A stretch of 64,000 nucleotides of DNA from Candidatus Staskawiczbacteria bacterium RIFCSPHIGHO2_01_FULL_39_25 (GCA_001820095.1 MHOO01000011.1:1958-65957), one strand, 5' to 3'. Positions 15,333-61,880 are shown, counted from the stretch's first letter. Notes: generated by a model from the letters alone, not told the origin. Numbers and translations: made by a program.

Positions 15333-15364
15333 AATACTAAAAATTAGTTAAATGCCATTATAGT

Positions 15365-18198: not shown

Positions 18199-18205
18199 AG
18201 ATGAA

Positions 18206-19152: not shown

Positions 19153-19160
19153 TAGTATAA

Positions 19161-19336: not shown

Positions 19337-19372
19337 AATGATAAAAAATGGGGAATTAGAATTTAGTTAATG

Positions 19373-27159: not shown

Positions 27160-27300
27160 GAATTTTCAATTTTCAATTCCCAATTTTCAATCAATTATCA
27201 ATGAAACGAATTTTCAATGACGAAAACGTTAATTTGATAATTTGGTAATTTAATACTTGATTGATAATTGATACTTGATAATTGATAATTAAAATTTACT
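27160..27300. repeat. TTTTCAATT / TTGATAATT short-period repeat block
   Basis: caattttcaattcccaattttcaatcaattatcaatg ... ttgataattgatacttgataattgataatt; related copies at 42905-42960 (inside ksgA) and 61685-61740. Confidence 0.7.
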
Positions 27301-46923: not shown

Positions 46924-47328
46924 ATGTCACAATATCCCATTCCACAATTTATTGAAGAAGAAGGAAAAATTATCTTTTTCCTAACATTCCGGCAATTTTT
47001 TCTGCTTGCAGGAGGAGGAGCTGTTTGCCTTATTATATATTTTCTAGCCCCTTATTCCCTCTTTTTGGGCGCCGCGGCCCTTATTATGATAACGGTTATC
47101 GTCATAGCCTTTGTGAAGGTTCAGAACGCATCCATAGTAACTGTTGTGCTTAATATGCTTGGATTTATGGTAGGTAAAAAAAACTACACCTGGAGTAAAA
47201 GGGGAACAAATGCACGGCCCGAAACAGAAAGAAAGCAAGAATTTAAAAAACCCGTTGAAGTTCCGGCCCCAAAACTACAGCCCAGCAAACTAAGAGCAGC
47301 GCAGAAGATGATAGAGGTGAGGAAGTAA
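46924..47328 (+). CDS. PrgI/VirB3-like small T4SS membrane protein
   Basis: IPQFIEEEGKIIFFLTFRQFFLLAGGGAVCLIIYFL N-terminal pattern with two TM; immediately upstream of VirB4. Confidence 0.5.
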   Translation: MSQYPIPQFIEEEGKIIFFLTFRQFFLLAGGGAVCLIIYFLAPYSLFLGAAALIMITVIVIAFVKVQNASIVTVVLNMLGFMVGKKNYTWSKRGTNARPETERKQEFKKPVEVPAPKLQPSKLRAAQKMIEVRK

Positions 47329-47377
47329 TTATCCTAATTAACCTAATTATTCTAATTGTTCTAATCAAACCCTAATG
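47329..47377. repeat. ATTAG-type repeat arm (rc orientation) ending in ccctaATGtcc, which supplies the start of ORF 47375
   Basis: ttatcctaattaacctaattattctaattgttctaatcaaaccctaatg. Confidence 0.8.
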
Positions 47378-47770
47378 TCCAATGAAAAAAATACAAAATA
47401 CGATTTAGAAGAAAGAACTGCTAAATTCGGAGAAGATATTATAAATTTTGCAAAAATCATTCCAGTAAATCCAGTTACTCAAAGAATTATTCCTCAATTA
47501 GTAGCATCCGGAACTTCTATGGGCTCAAATTACTGTGAAGCAGACGATGCAGAATCTGGCAAAGACTTTAAGCATAAAATAGGAATTTGCAAAAAAGAGG
47601 GCAGAGAAACAAAATACTGGCTAAGGATGATAGCTGCTGCAGTGCCAGCATTAAGAGAAGAAGCACGAGTTTTTTGGCAGGAAGCTAAAGAATTACACTT
47701 AATCTTTAATGCTATTTATCGTAAAGTTAACAAAAAGCCTTTAGAAATTAAAAAATTAAGTATTGATTAG
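47375..47770 (+). CDS. four-helix-bundle protein, second paralog (TIGR02436-like)
   Basis: SGTSMGSNYCEADDAESGKDFKHKIGICKKEGRETKYWLRM matches the 4HB/IVS family pattern; flanked on both sides by ATTAG repeat arms. Confidence 0.65.
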   Translation: MSNEKNTKYDLEERTAKFGEDIINFAKIIPVNPVTQRIIPQLVASGTSMGSNYCEADDAESGKDFKHKIGICKKEGRETKYWLRMIAAAVPALREEARVFWQEAKELHLIFNAIYRKVNKKPLEIKKLSID

Positions 47771-47811
47771 GTAAATTAGATTAATTAGTATAATTAGAAT
47801 AATTTCAAAAC
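47765..47811. repeat. ATTAG-type repeat arm (forward orientation) ending aataatttcaaaacATG, which supplies the start of ORF 47812
   Basis: attaggtaaattagattaattagtataattagaataatttcaaaac; same terminal 27 nt precede ORF 48788. Confidence 0.8.
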
Positions 47812-48486
47812 ATGGAGCCGGCGACACAAGATTTTTTAGAAATTCAAGACATTAGAGAAGGCATTGTGATCTTGAAAAATAACAACATACGGGGGATATT
47901 AATGGTTTCCTCTATTAATTTTGCCTTAAAATCTGACGAGGAGCAGTCAGCCATTATTTATGCCTTCCAGAGTTTTTTAAACTCGCTGGATTTTTCGTGC
48001 CAGATTATCATACAATCCAGAAACATCAATATCACCCCCTACTTAGACAACATTAAAGCATTAGAAGAAAACCAAACGAGCGAGCTCATGAAAGCACAAA
48101 CTGCCTCATACGGAGAATTTATCCGAGAGCTAGTGAAAGGAGACAATGTAATGACAAAAAGCTTTTATGTGGTGGTGCCATATACGTTAGCAGAAATACT
48201 GGGAGTTGGATCTGCGGTAAGCAAATTTAATTTCTCTGAAATGCTAGGATTAGGCAAGAAAAGCAAAGGGGAGAATAAGCCGATAATAAAAGATGAAGAC
48301 TTTGAAAAGTGCAAAAACCAGCTTTGGCAAAGGATGGAATTTGTAGCCATGGGGTTAAAGAGGTGCGGATTAGACGTTATTCCCCTGACCACCCCGGAGT
48401 TGATTGAACTATTTTGGGCAACCCACCACCCCAGTGAAGCAGAAATCGGATACTCGCCGGAAGTAGTGCCAGAACTGCTGAAATAA
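47812..48486 (+). CDS. VirB4-family protein, N-terminal fragment
   Basis: FLEIQDIREGIVILKNNNIRGILMVSSINFALKSDEEQ matches the N-terminal domain of Gram-positive-type VirB4 (TcpF/PrgJ-like); stops at TAA at the first base of a repeat. Confidence 0.6.
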   Translation: MEPATQDFLEIQDIREGIVILKNNNIRGILMVSSINFALKSDEEQSAIIYAFQSFLNSLDFSCQIIIQSRNINITPYLDNIKALEENQTSELMKAQTASYGEFIRELVKGDNVMTKSFYVVVPYTLAEILGVGSAVSKFNFSEMLGLGKKSKGENKPIIKDEDFEKCKNQLWQRMEFVAMGLKRCGLDVIPLTTPELIELFWATHHPSEAEIGYSPEVVPELLK

Positions 48487-48787
48487 TTATTCTAATTGAC
48501 CTAATTTCTAATTGTTCTAATCAAATCCCAATTCCCAAGCCCCAATTCCCAAACGTAATTTGGGAATTAAGGAATTAGGCATTATTTTCTAGCAAGCGAA
48601 GGCAATAAAGATTCACAAATATTTATTGCCAAGCGGCGACGAAAATATGCTTTGCATATTTAGAATAATAGAAATAGGATTTATATAATACGTCGCTCGG
48701 TCGGCATACGTGAAACTGCGGTTTCCCCTATGCCTCCCTTGGCTAGTATTATTAGAGCAATTAGTATAATTAGAATAATTTCAAAAC
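48487..48787. repeat. composite repeat cassette splitting virB4: ATTAG arm, CCCAATTCCCAA repeats, and a 130-bp element (48655-48787) that is the inverted copy of 60153-60285
   Basis: Direct comparison: reverse complement of 48655-48787 matches 60153-60285 at about 97% over about 130 nt. Confidence 0.85.
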
Positions 48788-50590
48788 ATGTCATTTTTTA
48801 GTAAAAAAGAAAATAAGCAAAAAGGAGAAACAGAAGAAAGGTTCTTTGAAGAAGAGACTCTTAATATAAAGGATATTATTGCGCCTCCTTACATCGGGAT
48901 AACCCAGGACCATATTAATTTGGGCGAAAAATTCACCAAATCTTTTTTCATCTTTTCTTATCCTAGGTATTTAAACACAGGCTGGCTTTCCCCCGCTATT
49001 AACCTCAATGTCCCTATGGACATATCTTTTTTCATCCATCCCGTTAACAGTGAATTGATTTTAAAAAAATTAAGGTCAAAAATTACCCAAGTTTCCTCTG
49101 AATTAATGGAGCGGCAGGAAAAGGGGTTAATCCGCGATCCGGCGCTTGAAACCGGCTACCAGGACATTGAAACCTTAAGAGATAAGATAATTACTGCCCA
49201 GGAAAAAATGTTCCGGTTTGGGCTTTATATTACCGTATACCGGGACAATGCGGAACAAATGCGGGAAGTAGAATCAACTCTGCGGTCAATTTTTGAATCC
49301 CGACTAATCTATATAAAGCCCGCCCTATTCAAACAAAAAGAAGGGTTTATTTCCACCAGCCCCTACGGAATGGATTTGCTTTCGGTCCACATTCCTATGA
49401 ACACCGAACCGCTTTCCACCACCTTTCCATTTACGTCATTTGATTTAAGCTCTAACGAGGGAATTTTATACGGCATTAATGGCCACAATAATTCTTTGGT
49501 ATTATTTGACCGTTTTACCTTAGAAAACTCCAACATGGTGGTTTTTGCCAAGTCAGGATCCGGGAAATCATACGCCATAAAGCTGGAAATATTGAGATAC
49601 CTAATGTGGGGAGTTGATGTGATTGTTATTGACCCTGAAAATGAATATGAATTTTTGGCTGATGGAGTGGGAGGAGATTTCTTTAAGATATCACTAACAT
49701 CAGATTACCACGTAAACCCTTTTGACTTGCCAGTGCCAGGGCCCGATGACAGCGTAGATGACATTTTGCGGTCAAACGTAATAAATTTAGTGGGATTGTT
49801 AAGAATTATGCTAGGCGGATTGACGCCGGAAGAAGACAGCATCTTAGACCAAGCCCTTACCGAAACTTACGCCATACGGGATATTACCCCCCAATCTGAC
49901 CCTGCTACCTGGCAGGAAAATATACCGGTAATGTCTGACTTTGCGGAAATTTTAGAAAATATGACCGGAGCTGAATCCTTAGCCAGGCGCCTTAAAAAAT
50001 TCACCCAGGGAACGTTTGCGGGATTTTTTAATAGAAAATCAAATATTACGATTGAAAAAAACTTTATTGTGTTTGGCATACGGGATATGGAAGAATCTTT
50101 AAAACCCATTGCCCTGTTTATGGTCATGCGCTACGTATGGAATATCATCAGGAGCACGGTAAAAAAGAGGATTCTGGTTATTGATGAAGCCTGGTGGCTG
50201 ATGCAATCAGAAGATGGAGCTTCATTCTTGTTTGGCTTGGTAAAAAGGGGCAGAAAATATTGGCTGGGGGTAACTACCATAACCCAAGACATAGAAGATT
50301 TTATGAAGTCTTCATATGGCAAAGCCATTATTACCAATTCTTCGCTGCAGCTTTTGTTAAAACAGTCTCCGGCGGCTCTTGACGTACTGCAAACCACCTT
50401 TGACTTAACCGAACAGGAAAAAACACTTTTATTGGATGCCAATGTGGGAGAAGGCCTTTTCTTTGCCGGAAAAAAGCATGTCTATATCGGCGTAAAAGCC
50501 AGCTACACCGAAGACCAGATTATAACTACCAGCCCCGGGGAGGTTGAAAAAATCAGGGAGGCAAGGAAAAAATTACAACAACAGCAGTAA
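48788..50590 (+). CDS. VirB4/TrbE/CagE-family T4SS ATPase, C-terminal (ATPase) part
   Basis: IAPPYIGIT...FFIFSYPRYLNTGWL; Walker A FAKSGSGKSYAIK; Walker B VIDEAWWLM; 600 aa. Confidence 0.85.
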   Translation: MSFFSKKENKQKGETEERFFEEETLNIKDIIAPPYIGITQDHINLGEKFTKSFFIFSYPRYLNTGWLSPAINLNVPMDISFFIHPVNSELILKKLRSKITQVSSELMERQEKGLIRDPALETGYQDIETLRDKIITAQEKMFRFGLYITVYRDNAEQMREVESTLRSIFESRLIYIKPALFKQKEGFISTSPYGMDLLSVHIPMNTEPLSTTFPFTSFDLSSNEGILYGINGHNNSLVLFDRFTLENSNMVVFAKSGSGKSYAIKLEILRYLMWGVDVIVIDPENEYEFLADGVGGDFFKISLTSDYHVNPFDLPVPGPDDSVDDILRSNVINLVGLLRIMLGGLTPEEDSILDQALTETYAIRDITPQSDPATWQENIPVMSDFAEILENMTGAESLARRLKKFTQGTFAGFFNRKSNITIEKNFIVFGIRDMEESLKPIALFMVMRYVWNIIRSTVKKRILVIDEAWWLMQSEDGASFLFGLVKRGRKYWLGVTTITQDIEDFMKSSYGKAIITNSSLQLLLKQSPAALDVLQTTFDLTEQEKTLLLDANVGEGLFFAGKKHVYIGVKASYTEDQIITTSPGEVEKIREARKKLQQQQ

Positions 50591-52206
50591 TGTGTTACAA
50601 TTGTAATAATATGCAAATGCCAAAAAAATATAAAAAAGTTATTGTTGTACTGATCTTTATAGCTGTTATATTACCGCAAAGTACCTTGATTTTGGCATCG
50701 GAGGTAAACTACCCTCCCATTCCAGGAGCTCCTAGCCCCACCGATTTATTTTCATATATTGCCTACTTTATTACGTTTGCCGTAGTTGCAGCCGGGATAA
50801 TGGGGGTGGTATCTATTGTTATTGCGGGAATTAAGATATTGATCAATGCGGGCAGCCCGGCGGCAATAGGCGACGCAAAAGACAGAATTTTTGGCGCCAT
50901 TTTAGGGATCATCCTTTTAATGGCCTCTTTTATAATTCTGCGAACTATCAATGCGGAATTAGTTAATGAAAGAACGATTGCCCCAGACCTTAAAGCAGGC
51001 GCTGTTTATTATACTGTTAGTTCTGGCCTTAATGAAGATGGGGAGCTTTATATACAAGCGCCAGAAGCAGAGTCAAACACTGCTAATATACCACAACCAT
51101 ATGACACAATTTACTATTACTGCGAAGGCAATCCGGCAAATTATAGAAATCTTTTAGTGTGGGTATATAACGATTTTAACTTTCAGATAGATCGAAATAA
51201 AAATGGAGGCGCTGATGTTAATACTATTGTATTACCATGCAATCAAGGCACCCCCATATTAGACACTATCCTTTCTTTTAAAAGAAGCTACGAATACCCG
51301 GGAATTTATCTCTATCTTACCAATAAATGCACGGGCGTTAGTTCCCCCTCTCTAACACTAAGTGGTGATGTGCCCCGTTTTGATGCTCAAGCAAATAAAG
51401 AACAAAGACCTAAATCATTAAGAATTGTTAATGGAAAGGACCCCCGCCAAATATATGGAGTTATTTTTAATAAAAACCCTAAATTTACCGGGGAGTGTAC
51501 GCGGGTAGTATGGAATCCACAGCCAAATATTGAAAGTGAGTGCATAATTTTAGATGGGCAAGATGCTAAACCAAATGTATTCTTGACTGAAGAAAAATTT
51601 CTCCCCGAATCAATGTATGTAGTAAATTTTGATATAGATCTTGGACCAAGAGCAGGTGGCAGTATTGAGCTTTATAGTAAAGATTATATAGCGAGAATCC
51701 CGCAAAAAGCTGGCCCCAGCAATACTACCTCAGTAGGAACTGATGCTCAAAGGAATGCTGCTTTTGATATTGGCAATGTATTGCACATAAAAAATCCGGT
51801 GGAAGGTCAACCCACCCCAGATGCGTTGCTAAGAAAACCATTTTTTAAGGGGATAGGAGTAAGGTTTACGGCTACATACCCAGACACCGTAGAAGAAAGC
51901 TATGCTAATGGCAGTAGTGTGGGAGCCCGCTACTATGAGTATGGTTCGGCAACGACGCCCATAAACGGACAATATGAAAATTATCCTGAGGGAGGTGGAG
52001 GTGCCCAGTGCAATGATTATGACTATGAATGCATACGTAAGATAAAACATAATGGAACTTACTATACTATTTTTTATGCTCATAATAATTTGATCGGGGG
52101 TGAAGTTTGTGTAGTTAATACTAAATCAACTAATTTGCGCGATACTAAAATATTAGATAATAATAAAGTGATAACGGAGATAACTATAATTCCCACCACT
52201 CCCTAA
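50590..52206 (+). CDS. secreted/membrane protein: N-terminal T4SS-pilin-like domain fused to about 400-aa Cys/Gly/Asn-rich extracellular domain
   Basis: After the signal peptide, FITFAVVAAGIMGVVSIVIAGIKILINAGSPAAIGDAKDRIFGAILGIILLMASFIIL aligns by eye with the pilin ORF 33415; start more likely ATG 50611 (MQMPKKYKK). Confidence 0.5.
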   Translation: MCYNCNNMQMPKKYKKVIVVLIFIAVILPQSTLILASEVNYPPIPGAPSPTDLFSYIAYFITFAVVAAGIMGVVSIVIAGIKILINAGSPAAIGDAKDRIFGAILGIILLMASFIILRTINAELVNERTIAPDLKAGAVYYTVSSGLNEDGELYIQAPEAESNTANIPQPYDTIYYYCEGNPANYRNLLVWVYNDFNFQIDRNKNGGADVNTIVLPCNQGTPILDTILSFKRSYEYPGIYLYLTNKCTGVSSPSLTLSGDVPRFDAQANKEQRPKSLRIVNGKDPRQIYGVIFNKNPKFTGECTRVVWNPQPNIESECIILDGQDAKPNVFLTEEKFLPESMYVVNFDIDLGPRAGGSIELYSKDYIARIPQKAGPSNTTSVGTDAQRNAAFDIGNVLHIKNPVEGQPTPDALLRKPFFKGIGVRFTATYPDTVEESYANGSSVGARYYEYGSATTPINGQYENYPEGGGGAQCNDYDYECIRKIKHNGTYYTIFYAHNNLIGGEVCVVNTKSTNLRDTKILDNNKVITEITIIPTTP

Positions 52207-52270
52207 AATTTTGTATCCACCAAAAAACCACCGATTTTGACTCGGTGGTTTTTTGATTGGTATATTTTTA

Positions 52271-52813
52271 CTAAATAACAGGGCTAATGACTACGCGCCT
52301 ATCAAAGCCCTCTCCCTGGCTTTCGGTAATAATGTCCTGCCTTCCCGACAGCTCTGTATGAATTATCCTTCTTTCATATGCTGACATAGGGGGTAATATT
52401 TTCTTTTCTTTAGTGATTGCAACTTCATCAGCCAAACTCCTAGCCAAGCCTTTTAGGTATTCAATTTTCTTTTTTTTATAATCATTAATATCTACGTTTA
52501 GGTGAAAATTGTTCTCTAATTTTTTATTTAGTAAAATCCTTAAAACTCTCTGAAGCTCAAATAACGTTTGCCCGCCCTGGCCAATTAACATTTGCGGGTC
52601 ATCTAATGTAATATCTACAGTTACTAAATACATACTAGGAGCTTCGTTAACACTTGGGACATCCAAAAGCAGGTCATCTTTTTTATCTTGAACCTCTTTA
52701 TTTTCTTGTGGTATAGCAGATAGATTTACGGTAACCACAAAAGACGACACCGTCATTTTCTGCAGCATCTCTTCAACTTTTTCTTTAATAATGTTGATTT
52801 GGCTTTGATTCAT
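52271..52813 (-). CDS. Jag/KhpB (KH + R3H RNA-binding protein)
   Basis: R3H motif ERRIIHTEL; downstream of yidC as in the canonical origin locus. Confidence 0.8.
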   Translation of the reverse strand: MNQSQINIIKEKVEEMLQKMTVSSFVVTVNLSAIPQENKEVQDKKDDLLLDVPSVNEAPSMYLVTVDITLDDPQMLIGQGGQTLFELQRVLRILLNKKLENNFHLNVDINDYKKKKIEYLKGLARSLADEVAITKEKKILPPMSAYERRIIHTELSGRQDIITESQGEGFDRRVVISPVI

Positions 52814-52822
52814 CGTTTCTTG

Positions 52823-52850
52823 TTTTACAGACTCCCGGAGTCTGTAAAAT
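52823..52850. repeat. palindromic repeat TTTTACAGACTCCCGGAGTCTGTAAAAT (copy 2)
   Basis: Identical to 17406-17431. Confidence 0.7.
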
Positions 52851-53561
52851 TTATTCGGGTACTTTTTTTAAAATATAGTATTGCTGGGCGATAGAAACTA
52901 TCCCGCTCACTATCCAGTAGAGCCCCAGCGCCGATGGCAATTTTAAAAGGATAATGACCGTGACAAATGGAAAAAAGTAAAGCATTTGCTTTTGCATAAT
53001 AGTCCCAATATCCTTGGCTTTTGCCTTATCTGGCTTAGGCATTAACATTTTAGTCTGGAAAAACTGGAGAATGCCCGCCAATATGGCAAACACTAAGTTT
53101 GGTTGAGCCAAATCTACCATCTGTAAAAACATTGAATTAATTTGAATTGGGTTTACCACAAAACTGTAAAGATTCCCAAGCTCTTCTGGTTTTAACCCCA
53201 GCCAAAAAACCCTGTAAAGCGCAATTAAAATAGGAAGCTGTATAATTACTAAGAATAAGCCGCTAAAGGGGTTAATTTTTTCTTTACGGTATAGCTCTAG
53301 GGTTTCTTGGGCCTGTTTTTCCTTGTCGTTTTTAAATTTGCTCTGTATCTCCTGTAATTTGGGCTGAAGCCTCTGGAGAACTTTTTGGGAGTGCAATGCT
53401 TTTACCGATAAGGGATATAAAACAAATTTTATAACTACCGTAAGAACAATAATTGCAACACCAAAATCATGTCCGGGGAAATAATTGTAAATTAACACCA
53501 GCACATTAAATAAGGGCTTGTATAAAAGAACATCAAAAATAGTTACTAAAAAACCAAACAT
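52851..53561 (-). CDS. yidC: membrane protein insertase YidC/Oxa1 (short form)
   Basis: 5 TM with conserved LPILIALYRVFW and IQQYYI regions. Confidence 0.85.
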   Translation of the reverse strand: MFGFLVTIFDVLLYKPLFNVLVLIYNYFPGHDFGVAIIVLTVVIKFVLYPLSVKALHSQKVLQRLQPKLQEIQSKFKNDKEKQAQETLELYRKEKINPFSGLFLVIIQLPILIALYRVFWLGLKPEELGNLYSFVVNPIQINSMFLQMVDLAQPNLVFAILAGILQFFQTKMLMPKPDKAKAKDIGTIMQKQMLYFFPFVTVIILLKLPSALGLYWIVSGIVSIAQQYYILKKVPE

Positions 53562-53574
53562 TGCTTTGGAGTTG

Positions 53575-53904
53575 TTATATTTTTTTAAAGAATTTTGCGA
53601 TAGCCGCCTGTATTTCTAGAAACTCTTTCTTATTGATTTGAGGCAACGCAATAATAACTACATCTGCCGGTTTTTTCAGATTTTTCAATTCATAAAAAGC
53701 TGCGTCCCTTAATCTTCTCTTAATTTTATTCCTTTGGGTAGCTTTGGAGGAAACTTTCTTGCTTACGATAAAGCCGAAACGGCCTTCTGGCAAATGATTT
53801 CCCATTGACTTGCATACCAAAAAATCATTTTTTATAGTTTCCCCCCTTTTAAAGACGGCATCAAAATCCTTTTTCTTAGTTAATCGGTTAATTTTGGGCA
53901 ACAA
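53575..53904 (-). CDS. rnpA: RNase P protein component
   Basis: LPKINRLTKKKDFDAVFKRG and KATQRNKIKRRLR RnpA signatures; listed ORF to 53952 uses a TTG inside the ATTAG repeat; the TTG at about 53901-53904 gives the canonical N-terminus. Confidence 0.85.
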   Translation of the reverse strand: MLPKINRLTKKKDFDAVFKRGETIKNDFLVCKSMGNHLPEGRFGFIVSKKVSSKATQRNKIKRRLRDAAFYELKNLKKPADVVIIALPQINKKEFLEIQAAIAKFFKKI

Positions 53905-53912
53905 CTTAAATG

Positions 53913-54057
53913 AATTCCTAATTATTCTAATTGCTCTAATTATTCTAATCAAATCCTAACTTCTAATGTCTAATTTATAAAAAATACTTATTCATTGGGA
54001 TTTGAGTATTGGGGCTTGATTAGGTTAATTAGAAATTAGGTTAATTAGTATAATTCC
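53913..54057. repeat. ATTAG-type 9-bp-periodic inverted repeat pair (rc arm 53913-53975; forward arm 54020-54057)
   Basis: cctaattattctaattgctctaattattctaatcaaatcctaacttctaatgtc ... cttgattaggttaattagaaattaggttaattagtataatt. Confidence 0.8.
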
Positions 54058-54060
54058 GCA

Positions 54061-54195
54061 TTATACCGCTAATTTCTTCCTTCCCTTTGCTCTCCTTCTT
54101 TGGATAACCTGCCTGCCTTTTTTAGTTTGTGCGCGTTTTAGGAAGCCATGGGTCCTTTTTCTCTTTTTCTTTTTTGGTTTATAGGTAAAACTCAT
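54061..54195 (-). CDS. rpmH: 50S ribosomal protein L34
   Basis: Hand translation [44 protein letters not shown] (44 aa); not in the supplied ORF list. Confidence 0.9.
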
Positions 54196-54575
54196 AATTA
54201 AATTGTATTTAATATTAATTTTAGTATAATATGGCTAGTATAGTACAAAATAGGCCCTTGGTCAAACCATATTTTAATTTGAAATTTGAAATATTTTACA
54301 TTGAATTCAAATGGCCTAAATTTCAAATTTCAAATTCATCGGTATTGTGCGTCTAAATAGAAACATATCACACAAATTATCCACAGTTTAACCACAGTTG
54401 TTCTTATTTTACCCTAATTTGACAAAGGGTTAATAAATAGAAAAAATACACTATTAAGTAATACTCACCTAATTCAAGATAAGTGAAAATGTATTTCACT
54501 TATCTGTTAGACCTATTGCGTAATAAGGTTTGTAGTATAAAAACTTATTACGCAACAGGTCTATTGTTTGTAATT
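54196..54575. other. putative oriC part 1 (rpmH-dnaA intergenic) with DnaA box TTATCCACA at 54377-54385 and a 17-bp perfect hairpin at 54510-54561
   Basis: Canonical rpmH-dnaA position; AT-rich; consensus DnaA box; AAATTTCAAATT repeats at 54285-54340. Confidence 0.6.
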
Positions 54576-55934
54576 ATGGAAAATACTGAGCTATGGCAAT
54601 CGGTGTTAGCACAAATGCAGCTTCATATCTCTAAGGCAAACTTTGCGACGTGGTTTCAAAACACCGGGATTGCGCTTAAGGAAAATGAAAAAGTGATTAT
54701 TTCCGTCCCCAATGCTTTTTCTAAAGAGTGGCTTAGTAATAAGTACTACAAATTAATGTTAAAGATAATGCATGATATAGATGCCACCATTAAAGAATTG
54801 GAATTTACCATTAATCCCCAATCATTAAAAGCTCTCGTAGTTAAAGAGGCGGCAGATACCGCGAAGATAGACATAGAACAGCTTAAATTTGATGAGTTTA
54901 AAATCAACAAAGAAACCAACCTCAATCCTCGCTACACGTTTGAAAATTTTGTCGTAGGCTCATTCAATGAGCTGCCTTGCGCTGCGGCCCTGGCGGTTTC
55001 CGAAAACCCCGGCTATGCCTATAACCCCCTTTTTATTTACGGAGGCGTGGGGTTAGGCAAAACCCACCTCATACAGGCCATTGGCAACCAAATAGCCAAC
55101 GATCCTAAAAAAAAGAAGGTAAGGTACATGCCTTCTGAAAAGCTGGTGTCGGGCATTGTGGCGGCCATTAGAAGCAATAGCATGGAATCCTTTAAGGCCA
55201 GCTTGGCTCCCATAGATGTATTAATTATTGATGATATTCAATTCATTGCGGGAAAAAATAAAAGCCAGGAAGAGTTTTTTCATGTGTTCAATTCTTTGTA
55301 TGAAAAAAACAAACAGATTATTCTTTCTTCTGATAGGCCGCCGAACGCCATACCAGAGCTAGAAGAACGGCTAAGATCAAGGTTGGGAGGCGGTATGACG
55401 ATTGACGTAAGCCTGCCAGATTATGAAACCAGATTGGCGATACTTAAAACAAAGCTTCAAGAAAAAAATATAAAACTGCCAGAAGATGTGCTAGAATATA
55501 TAGCTTCTAATGTAAAAAAGAACGTACGGGAGCTGGAAGGAGCCCTCAATAGCCTATTAATTTACTATAAAATCAATAACAACATCCCCAACTTGGAAAT
55601 TGCTAAAAAACTGTTAAAAGGTTTTGTGTTTTCTCCTTTTGACGTGGCAAACTATAAAAAAATAATTGAAACAGTAGCTAAATTTTACAACCTAGAAGAA
55701 AAAAATCTTTTTGACTCAACAAGGCGGAAAGAAATTGTAAGGCCCCGCCAGGTAGCAATGTTTTTACTAAGAAAGGAGTTAAAATATTCTTTTCCCGCCA
55801 TTGCCAGAAAATTCGGCGGCAAAGACCATACCACGGTGATTTACGCTTACAAAAAAATCCTCCGCGAGTCAGAAGAAAACAACAAATTAACCGATGAATT
55901 AAACTTAATAAAGCAGAGAGTATATAGTGGATAA
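54576..55934 (+). CDS. dnaA: chromosomal replication initiator DnaA
   Basis: Walker A GGVGLGKTHL; DnaA box-binding C-terminal domain (RPRQVAMFLLRKELKYSFPAIARKFGGKDHTTVIYAYKKI); listed ORF starts at 54483, ATG 54576 (MENTELW) after the hairpin is preferred. Confidence 0.95.
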   Translation: MENTELWQSVLAQMQLHISKANFATWFQNTGIALKENEKVIISVPNAFSKEWLSNKYYKLMLKIMHDIDATIKELEFTINPQSLKALVVKEAADTAKIDIEQLKFDEFKINKETNLNPRYTFENFVVGSFNELPCAAALAVSENPGYAYNPLFIYGGVGLGKTHLIQAIGNQIANDPKKKKVRYMPSEKLVSGIVAAIRSNSMESFKASLAPIDVLIIDDIQFIAGKNKSQEEFFHVFNSLYEKNKQIILSSDRPPNAIPELEERLRSRLGGGMTIDVSLPDYETRLAILKTKLQEKNIKLPEDVLEYIASNVKKNVRELEGALNSLLIYYKINNNIPNLEIAKKLLKGFVFSPFDVANYKKIIETVAKFYNLEEKNLFDSTRRKEIVRPRQVAMFLLRKELKYSFPAIARKFGGKDHTTVIYAYKKILRESEENNKLTDELNLIKQRVYSG

Positions 55935-56170
55935 CCCACATAATAACTTGCATATTAAAAAAATAAAAAATATATACCATTATTATTACCTGCCCTATTT
56001 ATATTTTTTTTAACTACACTATCCACAGGTTATTTTTAAAAAAATTAAGGACAAATTAAAATAAAATTTTAATAAAAAATTCATAAAATACGCGAGCTAA
56101 TAACAATAATAAGTTTTAATATATTAATAACTATTGTTAAAAATTAATAACCTGAAAAAAGAAAAGGAAT
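55935..56170. other. putative oriC part 2 / DNA unwinding element (dnaA-dnaN intergenic, extremely AT-rich)
   Basis: About 85% AT; partial DnaA box TATCCACAG at about 56010. Confidence 0.5.
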
Positions 56171-57295
56171 ATGAAAATAGAAATATTAAAAGAAAACCTA
56201 AAATCAGCCCTTAGTGTAATAGAAAGAGTGGTGGGAAAAAACTTATCATTGCCTATTTTAGATAATGTATTAATAAATACCGAAGATAGTTTTTTAAACT
56301 TAATTTCCACTGATTTAGAAACTACCATAAAGTTGTGGGTATTAACTAAAATAGTTAAAAAAGGCAAGGTGGTGGTTCCAGCAAAATTTCTTTCTAATTT
56401 TATCTCTTCCTTGCCGAATGAAAAAATAACCATTGAGTCTAAAGAGTATAATTTATTTATTGAATGCGGCAGCCTTAAAACCCAAATCCAAGGACACAAC
56501 CCGGAAGATTTTCCTATTATTCCAGAGTTTAAGGATGTGGATTTTATAGAAGTGGATAATAAAAAATTCTGCCAGGGGGTTTCCCAAATTATTGATATTG
56601 CCCAACCATCGCAATCAAAGCCAGAAATTTCCGGTATTTATTTTTCTTTTTCTAAAAACAGCATTAAGATTGTGGCAACCGACAGCTTTAGGCTTGCAGA
56701 AAAAAATGTTGCGCTAGAAAATTCTATAAAAAAAGAGTATTCTTTTATACTCCCCCAAAAACCAGCGCGAGAGTTGACGAATATTTTAGAAAACAAGGAA
56801 GGCATTCTTAAAATATATTTTTCCAGTAGCCAGATATTATTTGAGTCTCCCATGAAAGAAATGCCACATCCGCAAATTCAAATTACCTCCCGCTTAATTG
56901 AGGGGGAATATCCCAACTACCAAGATATTATCCCCACTAAATTTAAAACAAATATTACCCTAAAACGAGATGATTTTTTAAGCCAGATAAAAACAGCTTC
57001 GCTGTTCGCGAGCAAGGTTAACGAGGTAAAGATTTCAGCAGATGCTGAAAAAAAAGAAATAGAAATTTTTTCCCAGAATCCAGAAGTTGGGGAAAATAAG
57101 TCAAGGATTCCAGTAAAGATTGACGGAGAAAACATACAAGTATCTTTTAATTACAAATTTTTAATAGATGGCCTTTTAAACATTAAGAGCTCGGAAGTAA
57201 TTTTTGATATAAGTAAGGAGGAGGGCCCCTGTATTTTAAGGCCCGTAGGAGATGCCAGCTATATTTATGTAGTAATGCCAATTAAGTCTATTTAA
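56171..57295 (+). CDS. dnaN: DNA polymerase III beta sliding clamp
   Basis: 374 aa; three-domain clamp pattern. Confidence 0.9.
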   Translation: MKIEILKENLKSALSVIERVVGKNLSLPILDNVLINTEDSFLNLISTDLETTIKLWVLTKIVKKGKVVVPAKFLSNFISSLPNEKITIESKEYNLFIECGSLKTQIQGHNPEDFPIIPEFKDVDFIEVDNKKFCQGVSQIIDIAQPSQSKPEISGIYFSFSKNSIKIVATDSFRLAEKNVALENSIKKEYSFILPQKPARELTNILENKEGILKIYFSSSQILFESPMKEMPHPQIQITSRLIEGEYPNYQDIIPTKFKTNITLKRDDFLSQIKTASLFASKVNEVKISADAEKKEIEIFSQNPEVGENKSRIPVKIDGENIQVSFNYKFLIDGLLNIKSSEVIFDISKEEGPCILRPVGDASYIYVVMPIKSI

Positions 57296-57310
57296 CTAAG
57301 CGCGAAACTA

Positions 57311-57342
57311 AAAAAACAACCCCGCGGGGTTGTTTTTTTAGT
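57311..57342 (+). terminator. rho-independent terminator
   Basis: aaaaaaacaaccccgcggggttgttttttt. Confidence 0.75.
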
Positions 57343-57347
57343 TTCTA

Positions 57348-57522
57348 GACCTTGAATTACGAAATGCTTTCACGGTATTTTCTCCAAATTTGAAGGCGAA
57401 AATGTGATAGAATTTTAAAATATAGTTTACTACATTTTAAAATTATTGCACATTTGTAGACCAAATTTGGAGAAAATACCTAAAACTTGCCGTTTCATGG
57501 GGCATTTCGTAATTCAAGGTCT
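57348..57522. mobile_element. MITE-like element copy 3 (TIR AGACCTTGAATTACGAAATGC / GCATTTCGTAATTCAAGGTCT)
   Basis: Perfect 21-bp TIRs; interior about 85% identical to copy 1; right end overlaps the PBP1A stop codon. Confidence 0.8.
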
Positions 57523-59854
57523 AGTAGTTCGGTGGCGGTGGTTCTGGGCTTGGAGTCGGCGTAGGTGTGGGCGTAGGTGTCGGTGGCGGGGTTTCTGTCG
57601 GGGACATTTCTTCTGGGGTTGGCTCTATTGTTCCCACCCAATTTCTTACCGCTTCTTCCCATAGGAAATACAGGGGGTCTTGGGCGGGGTTTTCGGGCGC
57701 CGGGCCTAAGGGATTATTTTTATTAATGTAGTGCAGAATGCTGTGGGTGGAATCTAGCGGCAGTTGGCCTAATAAAATGGGATTTATGTTTTGAGGAATT
57801 TCGGGCGCGGTAAAGTCTTCCTTTGGGTGGGTGCTTAGCATTTTTTCAATAATTTTTCTCCAAATGGGAGCTGCTAGGCCAATACCTGTTTTTTTGTTGG
57901 TTGAGCTGTTGTCATTATTGCCAACCCATACCCCTACCGAGGCAAATGGGGTATACCCCATTGTCCATGCATCGTTGTAGTATTGGGTGGTTCCTGTTTT
58001 AGCGGCCACCTGATAACTATCAAAGCGCAGGGCGTTATTTGCGCCAAATATGGGAGCCCTTGCATTATTATCTGAAAGAATATCATTAATCGCCCTTGCC
58101 GCTTGGGTATCAAGCACCTTAGTGGGTTGTTTGCGGTTCTCTTCAATAATATTCCCTTCGCTATCTTCTATTTTTAAAACGCTGACAGGGGGCGTTTTAA
58201 AGCCTTCGGTGGCAAAAACACCGTATGCCGAGGTCATTTCCAGTAAAGTTACCTCGCCTCCCCCCAACACCAAAGAGAGCCCATAGCGGTCCGGTTCGGT
58301 GAGGGTAGTAATGCCAAGATCTTGAGCGGTTTGCAAACTGTCTTTTAACCCAGTTAAGTATAGAAGTCCTACTGATGGTATATTAAGGGATTGGGCCAAT
58401 GAGGATTTTAGTGAAACCATTCCCCGATAGCCTCCATCGTAATCTTGGGGGTGGTAGCAGTTGAGGCCGTATTGGTCTTTCCTTTGGTTCCCGTCGGCGC
58501 TGCAATAAGGGTTGAATTCGGTTTTAATGTCCCACAATATAGTTGAGGGAGTATATCCTTTTTTAAAGGAAGTTGCGTAGACAAAGGGCTTAAAAGATGA
58601 TCCTGGCTGCCGCAAACCCATGGTTGCCACATCAAATTTAGGATCAAATAGACAACTGCCGCTGGTTTTTTCATCGCATCCTTTAGGATATGACTTTGCA
58701 AAGTAATCTTTTGATCCAACGAGGGATAAAATTTGCCCGGTTTTTGGGTCAATCACCACCACGGCGGTGTTGTTTGCATTAAATTGCACATTTGTTTTAT
58801 CGGCGGTTGCAATTACGTCTTCAATGTAATGTTGAAGCTCCCAGTCTATGCTGGTATACACCCTTAGCCCCTTTTCTTTTAAAAAGTCTTCTCCATACTT
58901 ATCCTCCAAGTATTTATTAACATACATTACAAAGTGGGGAGCCTTTATGGGTGTTAAAGAATCAGAAAAAACCAATGTTTCTTCTTTCGCTTCTTTTAAT
59001 TGTTGCTCATTAATATATCCAAGCTCTTTCATGCGGTCTAAAATATAGTCTTTCTTTTGAAGAAGCTGTTTTTTATGGGATCCGTAAGGGGAGTAGTAAC
59101 TTGGCGCCGGAATTAAGGCGGTGAGAACCGCAGCTTGAGCCATAGAAAGGTCGGAGGCGGGCTTGTTAAAATAGGTTTGGCTTGCCGCCTGGGCGCCATA
59201 AGCGTTTTGTCCAAAAGGGATGGCGTTTAGGTACCAGTTTAAAATTTGGTCTTTTGAGTACCTTCTTTCCAGCTCTATGCTTAATACCACCTCCCTTACT
59301 TTTCGGGATAGCGTTTTCTGGTTGGTTAAGTACACTGAACGGATAAGTTGCTGGGTGATGGTGGAACCTCCTTGTTTAGCTGATTGGAGCCTTAAATCAA
59401 CTAAGATAGATCGTGCAAGGGCCTTAAAATCTATGCCTCCATGCTGGTAGAATCTTGCATCCTCGGATGCAAGCACAGCGTTCTTTAAATTGCTTGAAAT
59501 TTTATCAAAGGGAACGATTACTCTTTTTTCTTCTCCGTAAATATCGTATAAGATAACTTTTCCCGTTCTATCATAGATTTTAGTTGATTGTATAAAGGGG
59601 CTCTCAGTGAATTTTTCCGGGCGGGGCAGGTCGTAGGTGTAATAGAAAAATAAAAATAACCCGAGGCTCAGCCCAAATAGCAGAAAAAAAGCAAAACATT
59701 TGGCGAAGAAAAATAGAATATCTCTTTTCCTCTTCTTTTTAATGGCAGTGAACGCATGGTAAAGCGATTTTTTTGTAGCCGAAAACGCCAAAACGAACCG
59801 TTTTTTTAGGGATGATTCTAAGGTGTTAGTAATAGTTTTTTTCTTTTTGGCCAT
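57521..59854 (-). CDS. class A penicillin-binding protein (PBP1A: glycosyltransferase + transpeptidase) with Pro/Thr-rich C-terminal tail
   Basis: GT51 motif ASEDARFYQHGGID; transpeptidase SSFKPF, SLN, KTGT; tail PTPTPTPTPTPSPEPPPP. Confidence 0.9.
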   Translation of the reverse strand: MAKKKKTITNTLESSLKKRFVLAFSATKKSLYHAFTAIKKKRKRDILFFFAKCFAFFLLFGLSLGLFLFFYYTYDLPRPEKFTESPFIQSTKIYDRTGKVILYDIYGEEKRVIVPFDKISSNLKNAVLASEDARFYQHGGIDFKALARSILVDLRLQSAKQGGSTITQQLIRSVYLTNQKTLSRKVREVVLSIELERRYSKDQILNWYLNAIPFGQNAYGAQAASQTYFNKPASDLSMAQAAVLTALIPAPSYYSPYGSHKKQLLQKKDYILDRMKELGYINEQQLKEAKEETLVFSDSLTPIKAPHFVMYVNKYLEDKYGEDFLKEKGLRVYTSIDWELQHYIEDVIATADKTNVQFNANNTAVVVIDPKTGQILSLVGSKDYFAKSYPKGCDEKTSGSCLFDPKFDVATMGLRQPGSSFKPFVYATSFKKGYTPSTILWDIKTEFNPYCSADGNQRKDQYGLNCYHPQDYDGGYRGMVSLKSSLAQSLNIPSVGLLYLTGLKDSLQTAQDLGITTLTEPDRYGLSLVLGGGEVTLLEMTSAYGVFATEGFKTPPVSVLKIEDSEGNIIEENRKQPTKVLDTQAARAINDILSDNNARAPIFGANNALRFDSYQVAAKTGTTQYYNDAWTMGYTPFASVGVWVGNNDNSSTNKKTGIGLAAPIWRKIIEKMLSTHPKEDFTAPEIPQNINPILLGQLPLDSTHSILHYINKNNPLGPAPENPAQDPLYFLWEEAVRNWVGTIEPTPEEMSPTETPPPTPTPTPTPTPSPEPPPPNY

Positions 59855-59954
59855 TTTTCCATTTAACCGATAGGTATATTATATCTTAAAAGACTTATAG
59901 AAATCCATAGGCCGCCGTGTTATTCCGTAATGAGCTAGGCTTAGCCTAACTCAA

Positions 59955-59990
59955 GCTAAAACCCCTCTTGAGAGGGGTTTTAGCTTATTG
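59955..59990. terminator. bidirectional hairpin terminator
   Basis: ctaaaacccctcttgagaggggttttag. Confidence 0.65.
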
Positions 59991-59999
59991 TGATTAAAT

Positions 60000-60203
60000 T
60001 TATTCTTCTTCGTCGGCCGCTACTTCATCGTCATCATCCTCTTCATCGTCTGCTTCATCATCCTTAACCTCTTCCTCTTCATTGCCATCGTCGTAATCAT
60101 CAAAGTCGTCTACTTGGCTGATAACATTGAGAAATTCCTCTTCCATTTTTTGAATTATTCTAATTATTCTAATTGCTCTAATAATACTAGCCAAGGGAGG
60201 CAT
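60000..60203 (-). CDS. small highly acidic protein (about 60% Asp/Glu)
   Basis: ATG at 60203 lies in the 130-bp inverted-repeat element (MPPLASIIRAIRIIRII); internal ATG at 60146 (MEEEFLNV) is an alternative start. Confidence 0.4.
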   Translation of the reverse strand: MPPLASIIRAIRIIRIIQKMEEEFLNVISQVDDFDDYDDGNEEEEVKDDEADDEEDDDDEVAADEEE

Positions 60204-60370
60204 AGGGGAAACCGCAGTTTCACATATGCCGACCGAGCGACGTATTATATAAATCCTATTTCTATTATTCTAAATAATAACTAATGTCTAATTTCTAAAA
60301 ACTTTTGGCATTAGGATTTAGGATTTGATTAGGTCAATTAGTATAATTAGGTTAATTAGACTAATTTATT
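60147..60370. repeat. composite repeat: ATTAG arm, 130-bp element 60153-60285 (inverted copy of 48655-48787), ATTAG arms to 60370
   Basis: See feature 48487-48787. Confidence 0.85.
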
Positions 60371-60438
60371 ATGCTTACTTTCCCTATTATATTTTTTCAC
60401 AGACCATTGTCAACCCCTTTTTTCCACAATCACATAAA

Positions 60439-60960: not shown

Positions 60961-61697
60961 AGCGAAAATTTCAAATTAGAGTATATATCCTGTATGGCGT
61001 CGTTTTCATCTAGCGCCTCAAAAAGCTTTTCAGCTTTTTCTTTATCCTTGCCGCTTATTTCGATTTCTTCTTTGGCAACCCAATCCAGCGACGCAGACTG
61101 AATTTTCAGCTGTTTTTCTTCCAATGCCTTTTTTATTTTTTCTAAGTCTTCCGGCTTGGTATAAATGGCCAGCATGTTCTCTTGCCAGCGCACGTCTTCT
61201 GCCCCAGCTTCTATGGCCAGCAGCTCAAGGGTCTCTTTTGCTCCTTGGTTTTCGGGCACCATAATAGCGCCCTTCCTATCAAACATCCATTTTACTGCCC
61301 CTTCTCCGGCTATCTTGCCTTCATGCTGGCTTAAAATGCTCTTTACATCTCCTAATGTCCTATTTTTATTGTCAGTAATGCCCTCCATAATAATAGAAAA
61401 ACCTCCGGGGCCGAATCCTTCAAAAGATACCTCTTCCAGGCTTTCACCTGCCAATTCTCCCGTGCCTTTTTTAATAGCCCTTTCAATGTTTTCTTTGGGC
61501 ATATTAAATTCTTTGGCTTTTTCTATGGCAGCCTTCAATTGAATATTGCTGGCAGCATCAGGCCCCTTTTCTTTTACAGCAATAGTAATAACCCTTCCCA
61601 TTTTGGAAAAGATTTTCCCTTTCTTGGCATCATTAGCGTTTTTGGTTGCTGCGACTGTTTTAAAATGGCTATGACCGGACATACTACGAATTTTCAA
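60957..61697 (-). CDS. YebC/PmpR-family transcriptional regulator
   Basis: MSGHSHFKTV..KKGKIFSKMGRVITIAVKEKG family N-terminus; 246 aa. Confidence 0.85.
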   Translation of the reverse strand: MKIRSMSGHSHFKTVAATKNANDAKKGKIFSKMGRVITIAVKEKGPDAASNIQLKAAIEKAKEFNMPKENIERAIKKGTGELAGESLEEVSFEGFGPGGFSIIMEGITDNKNRTLGDVKSILSQHEGKIAGEGAVKWMFDRKGAIMVPENQGAKETLELLAIEAGAEDVRWQENMLAIYTKPEDLEKIKKALEEKQLKIQSASLDWVAKEEIEISGKDKEKAEKLFEALDENDAIQDIYSNLKFSL

Positions 61698-61880
61698 TTT
61701 TCAATTTACAATTTTCAATAAGTAGGTGTCGAAATTTTCACAATAGGGTCGCGAGATTTATCCGCTTTAGCGGAAAATCCCGACCTAGGAAAATTTCGAC
61801 GGATTTAATTATTTCAAATTGAATAATTTCAAATTGATTTCAAATGGCCTAAATTTCAAATTTCAAATTGATTTTCCACC
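61685..61880. repeat. mixed short-period repeats (TTTTCAATT block; GGGTCGCGAGA hairpin copy c at 61746-61789; AAATTTCAAATT block)
   Basis: Copies elsewhere: 27160-27300, 42905-42960, 12049-12087, 15206-15248, 54285-54340. Confidence 0.7.

Follow-up and report, generated by a model that had tools for sequence, protein, structure and literature searches.

The 64-kb stretch of Staskawiczbacteria DNA that was analyzed as a whole (hereafter the window) carries a dnaA region bracketed by two inverted repeats, copies A and B, each of which lies directly upstream of a start codon. The bracketed genes encode a VirB4-like ATPase, a 538-aa ORF, Jag/R3H, YidC, RnpA, L34, DnaA, DnaN, PBP1A, and a 48-aa acidic ORF, in agreement with the gene content listed in an earlier note on this DNA. 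The repeat arms are placed almost symmetrically about a cluster of DnaA boxes (~5.5 kb and ~5.9 kb away) that is conserved in the related loci L037, L013, L016, and L059. The main features of the region are:

47812–48486, plus strand: TraC-like gene (224 aa), which precedes element A and stands as a gene of its own in all relatives.
48657–48790, plus strand: repeat copy A, in which palindromic module and ATTAG array are followed by an 8-nt spacer and the start codon (ATG) of the VirB4-like gene; 5 independent contigs carry it unchanged.
48788–50590, plus strand: gene for the VirB4-like ATPase (600 aa), which follows copy A.
54377–54396, plus strand: DnaA boxes upstream of dnaA (one perfect, the adjacent one with one mismatch); candidate oriC.
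59962–59975, minus strand: intrinsic terminator-like hairpin after the acidic ORF.
60000–60146, minus strand: conserved, hyper-acidic 48-aa ORF, downstream of copy B.
60144–60276, minus strand: repeat copy B, built likewise of palindromic module and ATTAG array, with a spacer of 7 nt before the ATG that opens the 48-aa acidic ORF; identical in 10 contigs.
60386–60413, minus strand: consensus sigma-70 promoter (TTGACA-16-TATAAT, 12/12 matches), conserved in all relatives, which would drive the copy-B leader.

The description of the first two genes as halves of virB4 is misleading, as the 224-aa TraC-like and the 600-aa VirB4-like protein are encoded by separate genes in every relative examined; VirB4 homologues measure 594–623 aa among the 120 listed.

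An inverted-repeat search returned arms at 48657–48786 and 60147–60276 (130 nt, 97 % complementary, with 11,360 nt between them), and a gapped alignment of 48657–48790 on the plus strand with the reverse complement of 60144–60276 gave 130 identical columns out of 134, with the match extending up to both start codons. The previously noted inverted repeats of about 130 bp around an 11.4-kb segment are thus real, and both their inversion and their length are retained in the alignment. The left arm had also been positioned correctly; the right arm, given as 60153–60285, had been set about 6–9 nt too far to the right (true position 60144/60147–60276), and instead of a single mismatch the copies differ at four places (3 mismatches and 1 single-base indel), leaving uninterrupted identical runs of 52, 55, 13, 7, and 3 nt. 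A 45-nt core of the repeat occurs exactly twice in the window and in none of 100 shuffles.

Each copy is composed of three parts, namely a quasi-palindromic module of ~85 nt, an array of ATTAG 9-mers, and a spacer of 7–8 nt to the ATG. The ATTAG array is furthermore the gene-proximal arm of a longer hairpin, the complementary CTAAT array of which is found upstream:

48485–48546, plus strand: distal CTAAT-type arm of the hairpin enclosing copy A, starting at the TraC-like stop codon.
48547–48656, plus strand: additional loop cargo present in element A only (two small hairpins).
48676–48763, plus strand: module core of copy A, TATATAAT ... CGGTCGGCA-stem-loop-TGCCTCCCTT ... ATTATTA (100-bit covariance-model match; fold; covariation).
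48739–48783, plus strand: proximal ATTAG 9-mer array (arm) of element A.
60147–60194, minus strand: proximal ATTAG array (arm) of element B.
60170–60257, minus strand: module core of copy B (100-bit covariance-model match).
60303–60366, minus strand: distal arm (CTAAT-type on the minus strand) of the hairpin enclosing copy B.

The CTAAT and ATTAG arms (45–64 nt, 79–82 % complementary) constitute terminal inverted repeats that can pair into a hairpin, and folding of the whole elements gave z = −6.1 for element A and −2.8 for element B. Since the hairpins reach significance on either strand, with antisense folds that are even more stable (largely owing to base composition), a function as palindrome at the DNA level is equally allowed. 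No homologue was found for the extra loop cargo of element A (48547–48656).

Elements A and B belong to a set of six ATTAG hairpins dispersed over the window, two of them with a copy of the module, and triplets of ATTAG-N4 were found 17 times in the window as compared to an expectation of 0. All six share the same order (5'-CTAAT arm, loop or cargo, ATTAG arm, 7–12 nt, start codon) and are co-oriented with the downstream gene, which encodes FtsH, an ABC permease, the TraC-like protein, VirB4, RnpA, or the acidic ORF. The siblings, together with a second cassette of a different arm type, are:

1–138, plus strand: cargo-less ATTAG hairpin directly upstream of the ftsH start codon.
18202–18356, minus strand: cargo-less ATTAG hairpin upstream of the ABC-2 permease gene.
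46444–46919, plus strand: second PF05635 cassette, with the other arm type (TAGGG / CTAAACCC).
47325–47805, plus strand: sibling ATTAG hairpin with a PF05635 (23S rRNA IVS protein) gene as loop cargo.
53916–54055, minus strand: cargo-less ATTAG hairpin between rpmH and rnpA.

The stem-loop-ORF anatomy known from 23S rRNA intervening sequences (IVS) is displayed by both PF05635 cassettes of the window and by 18 of the 21 scored in relatives.

The module itself, laid out as 5' TATATAAT – CGGTCGGCA – variable stem-loop – TGCCTCCCTT – ATTAT 3', has nine members at different sites in six Staskawiczbacteria genomes, those of L013, L016, L059, and L027 (the last with two) being located elsewhere and contributed by a covariance model; altogether, 6 of the ~50 species loci examined (~20 kb each) contain it. 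Across the nine members, 88.9 % of the stem cells are paired (95 % in the basal helix), and both sides have changed in 7 pairs, corresponding to 21 cells as compared to 8.4 ± 2.2 in shuffles, none of which reached 21 in 500 trials, and to at most 4 cells in slid controls. Searches with an exact 36-mer and an exact 20-mer yielded nothing relevant in GTDB representative genomes or JGI metagenomes. With Rfam 15, tRNAs alone reached the gathering score in the window and no curated model matched the repeat; at E ≤ 10, the region gave spurious miRNA-type matches only. Between the window and L037, a stretch of 30 nt, TTAGAATAATAGAAATAGGATTTATATAAT, has stayed 100 % identical with the remainder diverged, which hints that some sequence-specific function, for example, as promoter or protein-binding site, may exist beyond that of a selfish hairpin.

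Comparison with relatives reveals different histories of the two copies. In the nearest relatives, the TraC-like and VirB4 genes are separated by 5 nt (L088) and 13 nt (L091) as compared to 301 nt in the window, showing that copy A lies within a 301-nt insertion at this junction; no obvious target-site duplication was seen there relative to L088, which is not the direct ancestor. Copy B is the older one and resides in a conserved 5'UTR downstream of the consensus promoter: in every relative examined, promoter and acidic ORF are conserved at this site and the leader between them is hypervariable, with L088 carrying an 'empty' ATTAG hairpin. Presence/absence polymorphism at orthologous sites is hence seen both at the element A junction and at site B (versus L088 and L091). 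L092 and L037 have a PF05635 cassette ahead of VirB4. L037, a related species, has an orthologous copy B' and a second copy, A', at another site between rnpA and yidC; no genome besides it and that of the window was noted for such a pair, and its copies are direct repeats. The paralogues A and B are 97 % identical, as opposed to 77–85 % for copies compared between the two genomes. No transposase or integrase domain was detected by Pfam in any annotated ORF of the window.

We consider it probable, with some reservation, that the two arms are paralogous, gene-proximal parts of a composite intergenic hairpin element that sits in sense orientation 5' of start codons, and not origin-flipping devices. 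Copies A and B would be inverted only because each is sense-oriented before its own gene and the VirB4-like gene (plus strand) and the acidic ORF (minus strand) face each other. Such elements resemble the Correia (CREE/nemis, Neisseria), ERIC, RUP, BOX, and REP/REPIN repeats in being short, non-coding, terminally inverted, dispersed between genes, and gene-adjacent, and resemble Correia-type MITEs in their variable presence at orthologous sites and, presumably, as co-transcribed hairpins. CREE can create promoters and can serve as binding or cleavage targets of RNase III (PMC2649163; reviews PMC10969869, PMC2229807), and BOX elements are modular with internal units that vary in number (PMC3049150). 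Unlike in Correia-type MITEs, however, the arms are arrays of tandem 7–9 nt units, which at a given site vary in sequence from species to species. The elements strictly follow the sense orientation, stop 7–12 nt short of a start codon, and can carry cargo (a PF05635 gene or the 85-nt module), and neither target-site duplication nor, in the 64-kb window, a transposase was found.

The sibling cassettes share with the 23S rRNA IVS of Coxiella, Leptospira, and Salmonella a terminal inverted-repeat stem with an S23p/PF05635 ORF in the loop; the Coxiella IVS additionally carries tandem heptamers, variable in number, directly before its ORF and is excised by RNase III (PMC4990558). In contrast to these, the cassettes are located between protein-coding genes of a T4SS-like operon, and the repeat arms A and B are ORF-less, sharing only the arm type. 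The window contains no rRNA, with all elements lying between protein-coding genes, and no rnc gene.

Heptamer arrays also make up the cyanobacterial STRR. Direct repeats of the heptamer TAACTGA upstream of start codons were described in Beggiatoaceae, Cyanobacteria, and Bacteroidetes, where canonical Shine-Dalgarno sites are rare and a post-transcriptional role was proposed (PMC4679880). The likeness consists in tandem short units a few nucleotides before the start codons of functionally unrelated genes (6/6 in the window), the differences in the 9-nt unit (ATTAG-N4) and in the pairing with an inverted partner to give a hairpin, almost all TAACTGA repeats being direct only. TIGR arrays of CPR bacteria and phages comprise two alternating repeats of 8–12 nt with 9-nt spacers (~36-nt unit) and an adjoining Nop-domain Tas gene, whereas the unit found here has 9 nt (5 conserved, 4 variable) and occurs in inverted pairs, with no Nop/Tas gene in the window. 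Tests of the window did not identify the repeat as a described RNA family, a TIGR array, or a Hin/Gin/Fim switch.

A possible, though rather unlikely, alternative is that the module is a shared cis-regulatory RNA, i. e., a structured leader (riboswitch-like, protein-binding, or an initiation-occluding thermometer) that co-regulates particular genes. The covariation of its stem, the conserved motifs CGGTCGGCA and TGCCTCCCTT, the invariable sense orientation with a gene downstream, and the start codons of L059 and L027 that lie within the 3' strand of the basal helix (CATAATTATG) all agree with such a role. However, the downstream genes are unrelated (VirB4, the acidic ORF, yidC, rpmH, a small membrane protein, and, at a distance, dnaA), and the module is missing at the same orthologous sites in most relatives. 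Unlike a ligand pocket, moreover, the conserved internal loop is turned into Watson-Crick pairs in L016 and the apical loop of L013 tolerates a 40-nt palindrome, and no Rfam match was obtained even at E ≤ 10.

It appears unlikely that the module instead acts as a portable promoter cassette, in which TATATAAT at its 5' end would be the −10 box of an internal promoter for the downstream gene. This motif, or ATAAT, is indeed invariant in 9/9 members, the window and L037 agree at 100 % of the positions in the 30-nt upstream block, and Correia elements create promoters at their ends (PMC2649163). Nonetheless, no acceptable −35 is present and the site was not reported by the promoter scan (threshold of 9/12 matches). 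The position directly following TATAAT covaries with the one it pairs with in the helix (A-U, G-C, U-A) and consequently belongs to the folded strand. Copy B is, moreover, already served by the 12/12 promoter ~150 nt upstream, and L027b has a separate extended −10 upstream of the module.

The interpretation proposed earlier, according to which the repeats are an origin-spanning inversion substrate or switch, holds with respect to the anatomy (a near-identical inverted repeat around dnaA/dnaN) but not with respect to function, as no evidence for flipping was obtained; we regard it as improbable that RecA recombination between A and B flips the dnaA segment in this sense. Origin- or terminus-symmetric inversions classically involve inverted rrn operons or IS copies around oriC, with which the arms share inverted homologous sequences symmetric around the origin. 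Those repeats, however, are kilobases long and both orientations occur among strains, whereas the present arms have 130 nt and one orientation was seen. The 97 % identical arms with perfect runs of 52 and 55 nt would suffice for homologous recombination, such lengths being above the minimal homology for RecA; besides their symmetric position, the presence of ruvC and ruvB also speaks in favor, as does an older inversion across the origin that is visible, with different breakpoints, in the Nealsonbacteria-like loci L055 and L057. Yet the reference orientation was found in 14/14 VirB4-carrying and 24/24 RuvC-carrying contig records, these 38 records stemming from at least 9 different sample or assembly accessions and representing the consensus level, so that minority orientations would not show. 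There are likewise no hybrid arms, because copy B retains its four differences from copy A in 10/10 contigs checked. The same gene order prevails in ~45 Staskawiczbacteria species, nearly all without the repeat, and the inverted geometry is not conserved, since the L037 copies are direct repeats with the second one at a different site (rnpA–yidC) and other relatives have none at these sites. Unlike Hin/Gin/Fim switches, the segment shows a single orientation and a geometry unconserved in relatives, and the window lacks a recombinase or invertase gene (Pfam annotation of ORFs). GC skew around the origin region was uninformative on inversion. Low-frequency RecA-mediated inversion across the identical runs is physically possible; none was observed.

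The earlier note had remarked that each copy can seed an ORF (MPPLASIIRAI...); that a small protein is encoded or seeded in this way is highly improbable. An ATG with a 23-codon open frame exists in copy A and the frame of copy B continues into the acidic ORF to give a 67-aa ORF, but the copy A frame differs from that of VirB4 and terminates ahead of it. In L037, another frame is used in B', with a stop after 13 codons, and the ATG is replaced by CTG in A'; no Pfam match was found, and gene callers annotate the 48-aa form. An assembly artefact or chimeric join, to which metagenome assemblies are liable at repeats, can practically be dismissed because independent NCBI and ENA assemblies from several samples reproduce both copies and both flanks base for base.

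Summed up, the composite hairpin element that we favor belongs to a family resembling IVS- and MITE-like elements that colonize mRNA leaders, as sibling hairpins with the same arms carry PF05635 loop cargo. Ectopic gene conversion, with array-armed hairpins as partners, or else transposition supplied in trans may have given rise to copy A. The elements are probably co-transcribed with the downstream gene and, by analogy with Correia/ERIC-type MITEs and 23S rRNA IVS, would act, if at all, as leader hairpins that control RNA processing and stability or translation initiation. Inversion of the 11.4-kb segment by homologous recombination would then be a possible side effect rather than their purpose. 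As both arms sit just before start codons, such a flip would swap the upstream contexts, placing VirB4 under the consensus promoter of the acidic ORF and joining the acidic ORF to the T4SS-like operon.

The inverted repeat described in the earlier note is borne out: a repeat search of the window returned two arms (48657-48786 and 60147-60276) of 130 nt that are 97% complementary, and both copies, A on the + strand and B on the - strand, were recovered in independent assemblies. Only the right arm had to be repositioned, as it had been set 6-9 nt too far to the right, and the single mismatch first noticed grows to four differences between the copies. When gaps are allowed, 48657-48790 aligns with the reverse complement of 60144-60276 as far as the two start codons, and 130 of the 134 columns are identical, the longest unbroken runs measuring 52 and 55 nt. 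Shuffles never contain the GC-rich 45-nt core, of which the window has exactly two occurrences. The gene context is as follows:

TrbL-like, PF05635 (S23p, the 23S rRNA IVS protein), PrgI-like, PF05635 and TraC-like (224 aa) genes, then copy A; + strand
VirB4-like gene (600 aa) and a 538-aa ORF, after copy A; + strand
Genes for Jag, YidC, RnpA and L34; - strand
54377-54396, DnaA boxes, one perfect and one with one mismatch
Genes for DnaA and DnaN; + strand
Gene for PBP1A and a 48-aa acidic ORF, then copy B; - strand
Genes for RuvC, YebC, ComEA and RuvB, after copy B; - strand

Each copy ends 7-8 nt ahead of an ATG, at 48788 for the VirB4-like gene and at 60146 for the acidic ORF, and both genes are directed into the bracketed segment, which alone suffices to explain the inverted geometry. 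The inversion of the copies is thus due only to the orientation of the two downstream genes. The origin-centred inversion that had been proposed for the repeat would place VirB4 and the acidic ORF each behind the upstream sequence of the other, and homologous recombination over the 52-55 nt identical runs is possible at low frequency. The contig records, whose listed locations cover at least nine different sample or assembly accessions, contain only the reference order (14 of 14 with this VirB4, 24 of 24 with this RuvC), copy B keeps its four differences from A in all ten contigs checked, and about 45 species of Staskawiczbacteria share the gene order. The 64-kb window has no gene for an invertase, integrase or transposase. 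In the related genome L037, an orthologous copy B' shares its strand with a second copy, which lies between rnpA and yidC, so that the two are direct repeats. With a single orientation observed and no conservation of its geometry, the repeat matters little as an inversion substrate. An older origin-spanning inversion with breakpoints unlike the repeat positions is seen in the Nealsonbacteria-like loci L055 and L057 (also L056 and L070), where the block from PrgI through VirB4 to DnaA-DnaN is inverted relative to its TrbL and PBP1A-RuvC-YebC flanks.

GC skew did not locate the origin in the window. Next to the DnaA boxes, the rpmH-dnaA spacer has a box conserved as TATAATATGG(Y)TA(R)TATA(S)TA (window 54206-54260; L013 9066-9100; L016 9770-9800; L037 9455-9490), which may be a promoter or origin element.

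Each copy consists of an approximately 85-nt quasi-palindromic module (TATATAAT, CGGTCGGCA, a stem-loop, TGCCTCCCTT and ATTATTA) and an array of ATTAG-N4 9-mers. Since complementary CTAAT arrays lie upstream of both copies (48485-48546 for A, 60303-60366 for B), the whole element folds as a long hairpin enclosing the module (z = -6.1 for A and -2.8 for B). The window contains 17 ATTAG-N4 triplets, with none expected, and six ATTAG hairpins of one architecture, in which a CTAAT arm, a loop with or without cargo, an ATTAG arm and 7-12 nt are followed by a start codon. All six have the orientation of their downstream genes (ftsH, ABC-2 permease, TraC-like, VirB4-like, rnpA and acidic ORF); three are empty, one carries a PF05635 gene (47325-47805) and two carry the module as copies A and B. 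The hairpin 5' of ftsH (window 1-64) and the distal arm of element B (60298-60359) form a 62-nt, 97% complementary pair 60 kb apart; this second pair of long inverted repeats could likewise serve as a substrate for recombination.

The 7-9 nt units of the hairpin at a given orthologous site vary from species to species, as compared in the acidic-ORF leaders of L008, L010, L012, L022, L025, L037 and L088. The unit types include ATTAG-N4, AATTATC/TTGAAAA, TTTACAA/TTTCAAA and GCGTCTAG/CTAAACCC, and several stand side by side in the window (27161-27290, 42906-42951, 54283-54339, 61685-61872); the arms seem to undergo concerted evolution within a genome. A pair of 46-nt hairpin repeats, 91% identical (12041-12086, +; 61747-61792, -), has a motif GGTCGGGAT recalling the module's GGTCGGCAT, and its 61.7-kb copy is the loop cargo of a TTGAAAA-type hairpin 5' of yebC. 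Beside the intact tRNA-Ser gene (12170-12254, -), its 3' part (T-arm and acceptor) is partially repeated in inverted orientation (12106-12147 versus 12151-12192), which may be the remnant of an integration or recombination event. A separate family of palindromic intergenic repeats of roughly 190 nt and about 81% mutual identity (15066-15336, 19152-19348, 57335-57520; L037 8640-8750 and 9760-9940) has one member between dnaN and PBP1A, within the bracketed segment, and gave only spurious hairpin (miRNA-model) matches in Rfam.

Both PF05635 genes of the window are loop cargo of inverted tandem-array arms on the + strand (cassettes 46444-46919 and 47325-47805), the gene at 46524-46883 lying between arms of non-ATTAG type. 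Across 13 related loci, all 22 PF05635 genes are sense-oriented within the T4SS-like operon, and significant inverted repeats flank 18 of the 21 that could be scored (cassettes in L009, L010, L012-L014, L016, L025, L091 and L092). This anatomy, inverted-repeat flanks around an S23p gene, is that of 23S rRNA intervening sequences (IVS), whereas the cassettes sit between genes of a T4SS-like operon and IVS elements in 23S rRNA; the cassettes look like IVS elements placed outside rRNA. In Coxiella, RNase III excises the IVS, which has a 28-bp terminal stem, an S23p ORF in the loop and tandem heptamers in variable number (PMC4990558).

Copy B lies within the 5'UTR of the acidic ORF (60000-60146, -), which encodes a hyper-acidic 48-aa product (MEEEFLNVISQVDDFDDYDD...DEEE) without a Pfam match, is preceded by a promoter matching the consensus at 12 of 12 positions (60413-60386, -) and has its own intrinsic terminator (59962-59975, -). 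ORF and promoter are conserved in all relatives examined, and each Staskawiczbacteria locus examined has the ORF between PBP1A and ruvC. The leader that separates promoter and ORF is hypervariable: some species have a short one, others a hairpin of 7-9 nt arrays peculiar to the species. In L088, which is closest to the window by VirB4 (88% identity), the site holds an ATTAG hairpin that is empty. At site A, the TraC-like/VirB4 spacer measures 301 nt in the window as compared to 5 nt in L088 and 13 nt in L091, and L092 and L037 have a PF05635 cassette ahead of VirB4 in place of copy A. The notion that virB4 is split into two halves by an insertion fails, as the TraC-like and VirB4-like genes are separate in all relatives and VirB4 homologues measure 594-623 aa among the 120 listed. 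Copies A and B are 97% identical, while window and L037 copies share 77-85%; this higher identity within than between genomes indicates either that the second copies had independent origins or that the copies of each genome are homogenised.

Further members of the module family were found with a covariance model:

L013 and L016, rpmH-dnaA spacer, directly abutting the conserved box
L059, 5'UTR of rpmH, whose ATG falls within the terminal CATAATTATG
L027, two copies, both of which end at a start codon

Scored on a hand-specified structure, used in place of an unconvincing alternative that RNAalifold proposed for four sequences, 88.9% of the stem cells of nine members are paired, and changes on both sides affect seven pairs and 21 cells. 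None of 500 shuffles, which give 8.4 +/- 2.2 such cells, comes up to this value, and slid controls have no more than four. In L013, a 40-nt perfect palindrome (GTTCGCATAAAAATTAAAAT gaa ATTTTAATTTTTATGCGAAC, 9001-9043) lies inside the apical loop of the module, and palindromes thus appear to insert into loops of pre-existing hairpins; in L016, the internal loop has turned into Watson-Crick pairs. Both features are more in keeping with a palindromic mobile element than with an RNA that binds a ligand. The module is not taken for a riboswitch or known leader, as Rfam gave no match (window at the gathering score, element in E-value mode), the downstream genes are unrelated and large apical insertions are tolerated. 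TIGR arrays, considered since they are present in CPR bacteria, were rejected because their unit structure differs and no Tas gene was found in the window. Neither an antisense ORF nor an antisense promoter (TTCACA-18-TATTAT) is conserved in L037 or L013, and the same holds for the frame and start codon of the MPPLASIIRAI ORF thought to be seeded by the copies. The covariance model also gave a weak match in the acidic-ORF leader of L052 (28.8 bits, E = 0.22), which is not clearly homologous, and the likeness of GAAACUGCGGUU and CCUCCC to the 16S rRNA 3' end was set aside as post hoc. In a strand test of G·U versus A·C pairs, 15 of 17 elements fold more stably as antisense and one as sense, with one tie; shuffles trace most of this to a sense strand rich in A and C, and the structure may be one of RNA or of DNA. 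An exact 36-mer of the core had no match in GTDB representative genomes, a 20-mer had two in JGI metagenomes (both by chance, in coding regions of unrelated high-GC organisms), and two patterns had none in viral contigs.

Summed up, the repeat arose by recent duplication of a small palindromic leader element, through a copying mechanism that we infer, and is part of a family of array-armed hairpin cassettes that is specific to the lineage and has a putative function, if any, at the RNA level. The nearest known systems are Correia/ERIC-type MITEs (PMC2649163), S23p-bearing 23S rRNA IVS (PMC4990558) and start-codon-proximal heptamer arrays (PMC4679880), from which the cassettes differ by their tandem-array arms, their strict sense placement just 5' of start codons and their loop cargo. 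More speculatively, and with considerable doubt, these may be undescribed, fast-evolving, sense-oriented hairpin cassettes of Staskawiczbacteria (CPR), directly 5' of start codons, with arms of 7-9 nt arrays and loops accepting cargo (S23p/PF05635 genes, the ~85-nt covarying palindromic module, nested palindromes), which would colonise mRNA leaders and operon junctions in an IVS-like manner instead of 23S rRNA, the 130-nt repeat being one recent cargo-copying event. If so, RNase III or RNase Y could, by processing the hairpins, tune or uncouple the genes of compact operons, and this could offer a first way to approach the role of S23p proteins by experiment.

Ahead of many gene starts, these reduced CPR genomes have repeat-array hairpins that are specific to the species and whose cargo comes and goes; this cargo includes PF05635 genes, a group familiar in other settings from 23S rRNA intervening sequences. 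Such hairpins cause annotation errors in the form of spurious N-terminal extensions and apparently 'split' genes. Should they be processed or affect translation, they would represent a post-transcriptional layer of organisation specific to the lineage, and would let operon structure vary rapidly.
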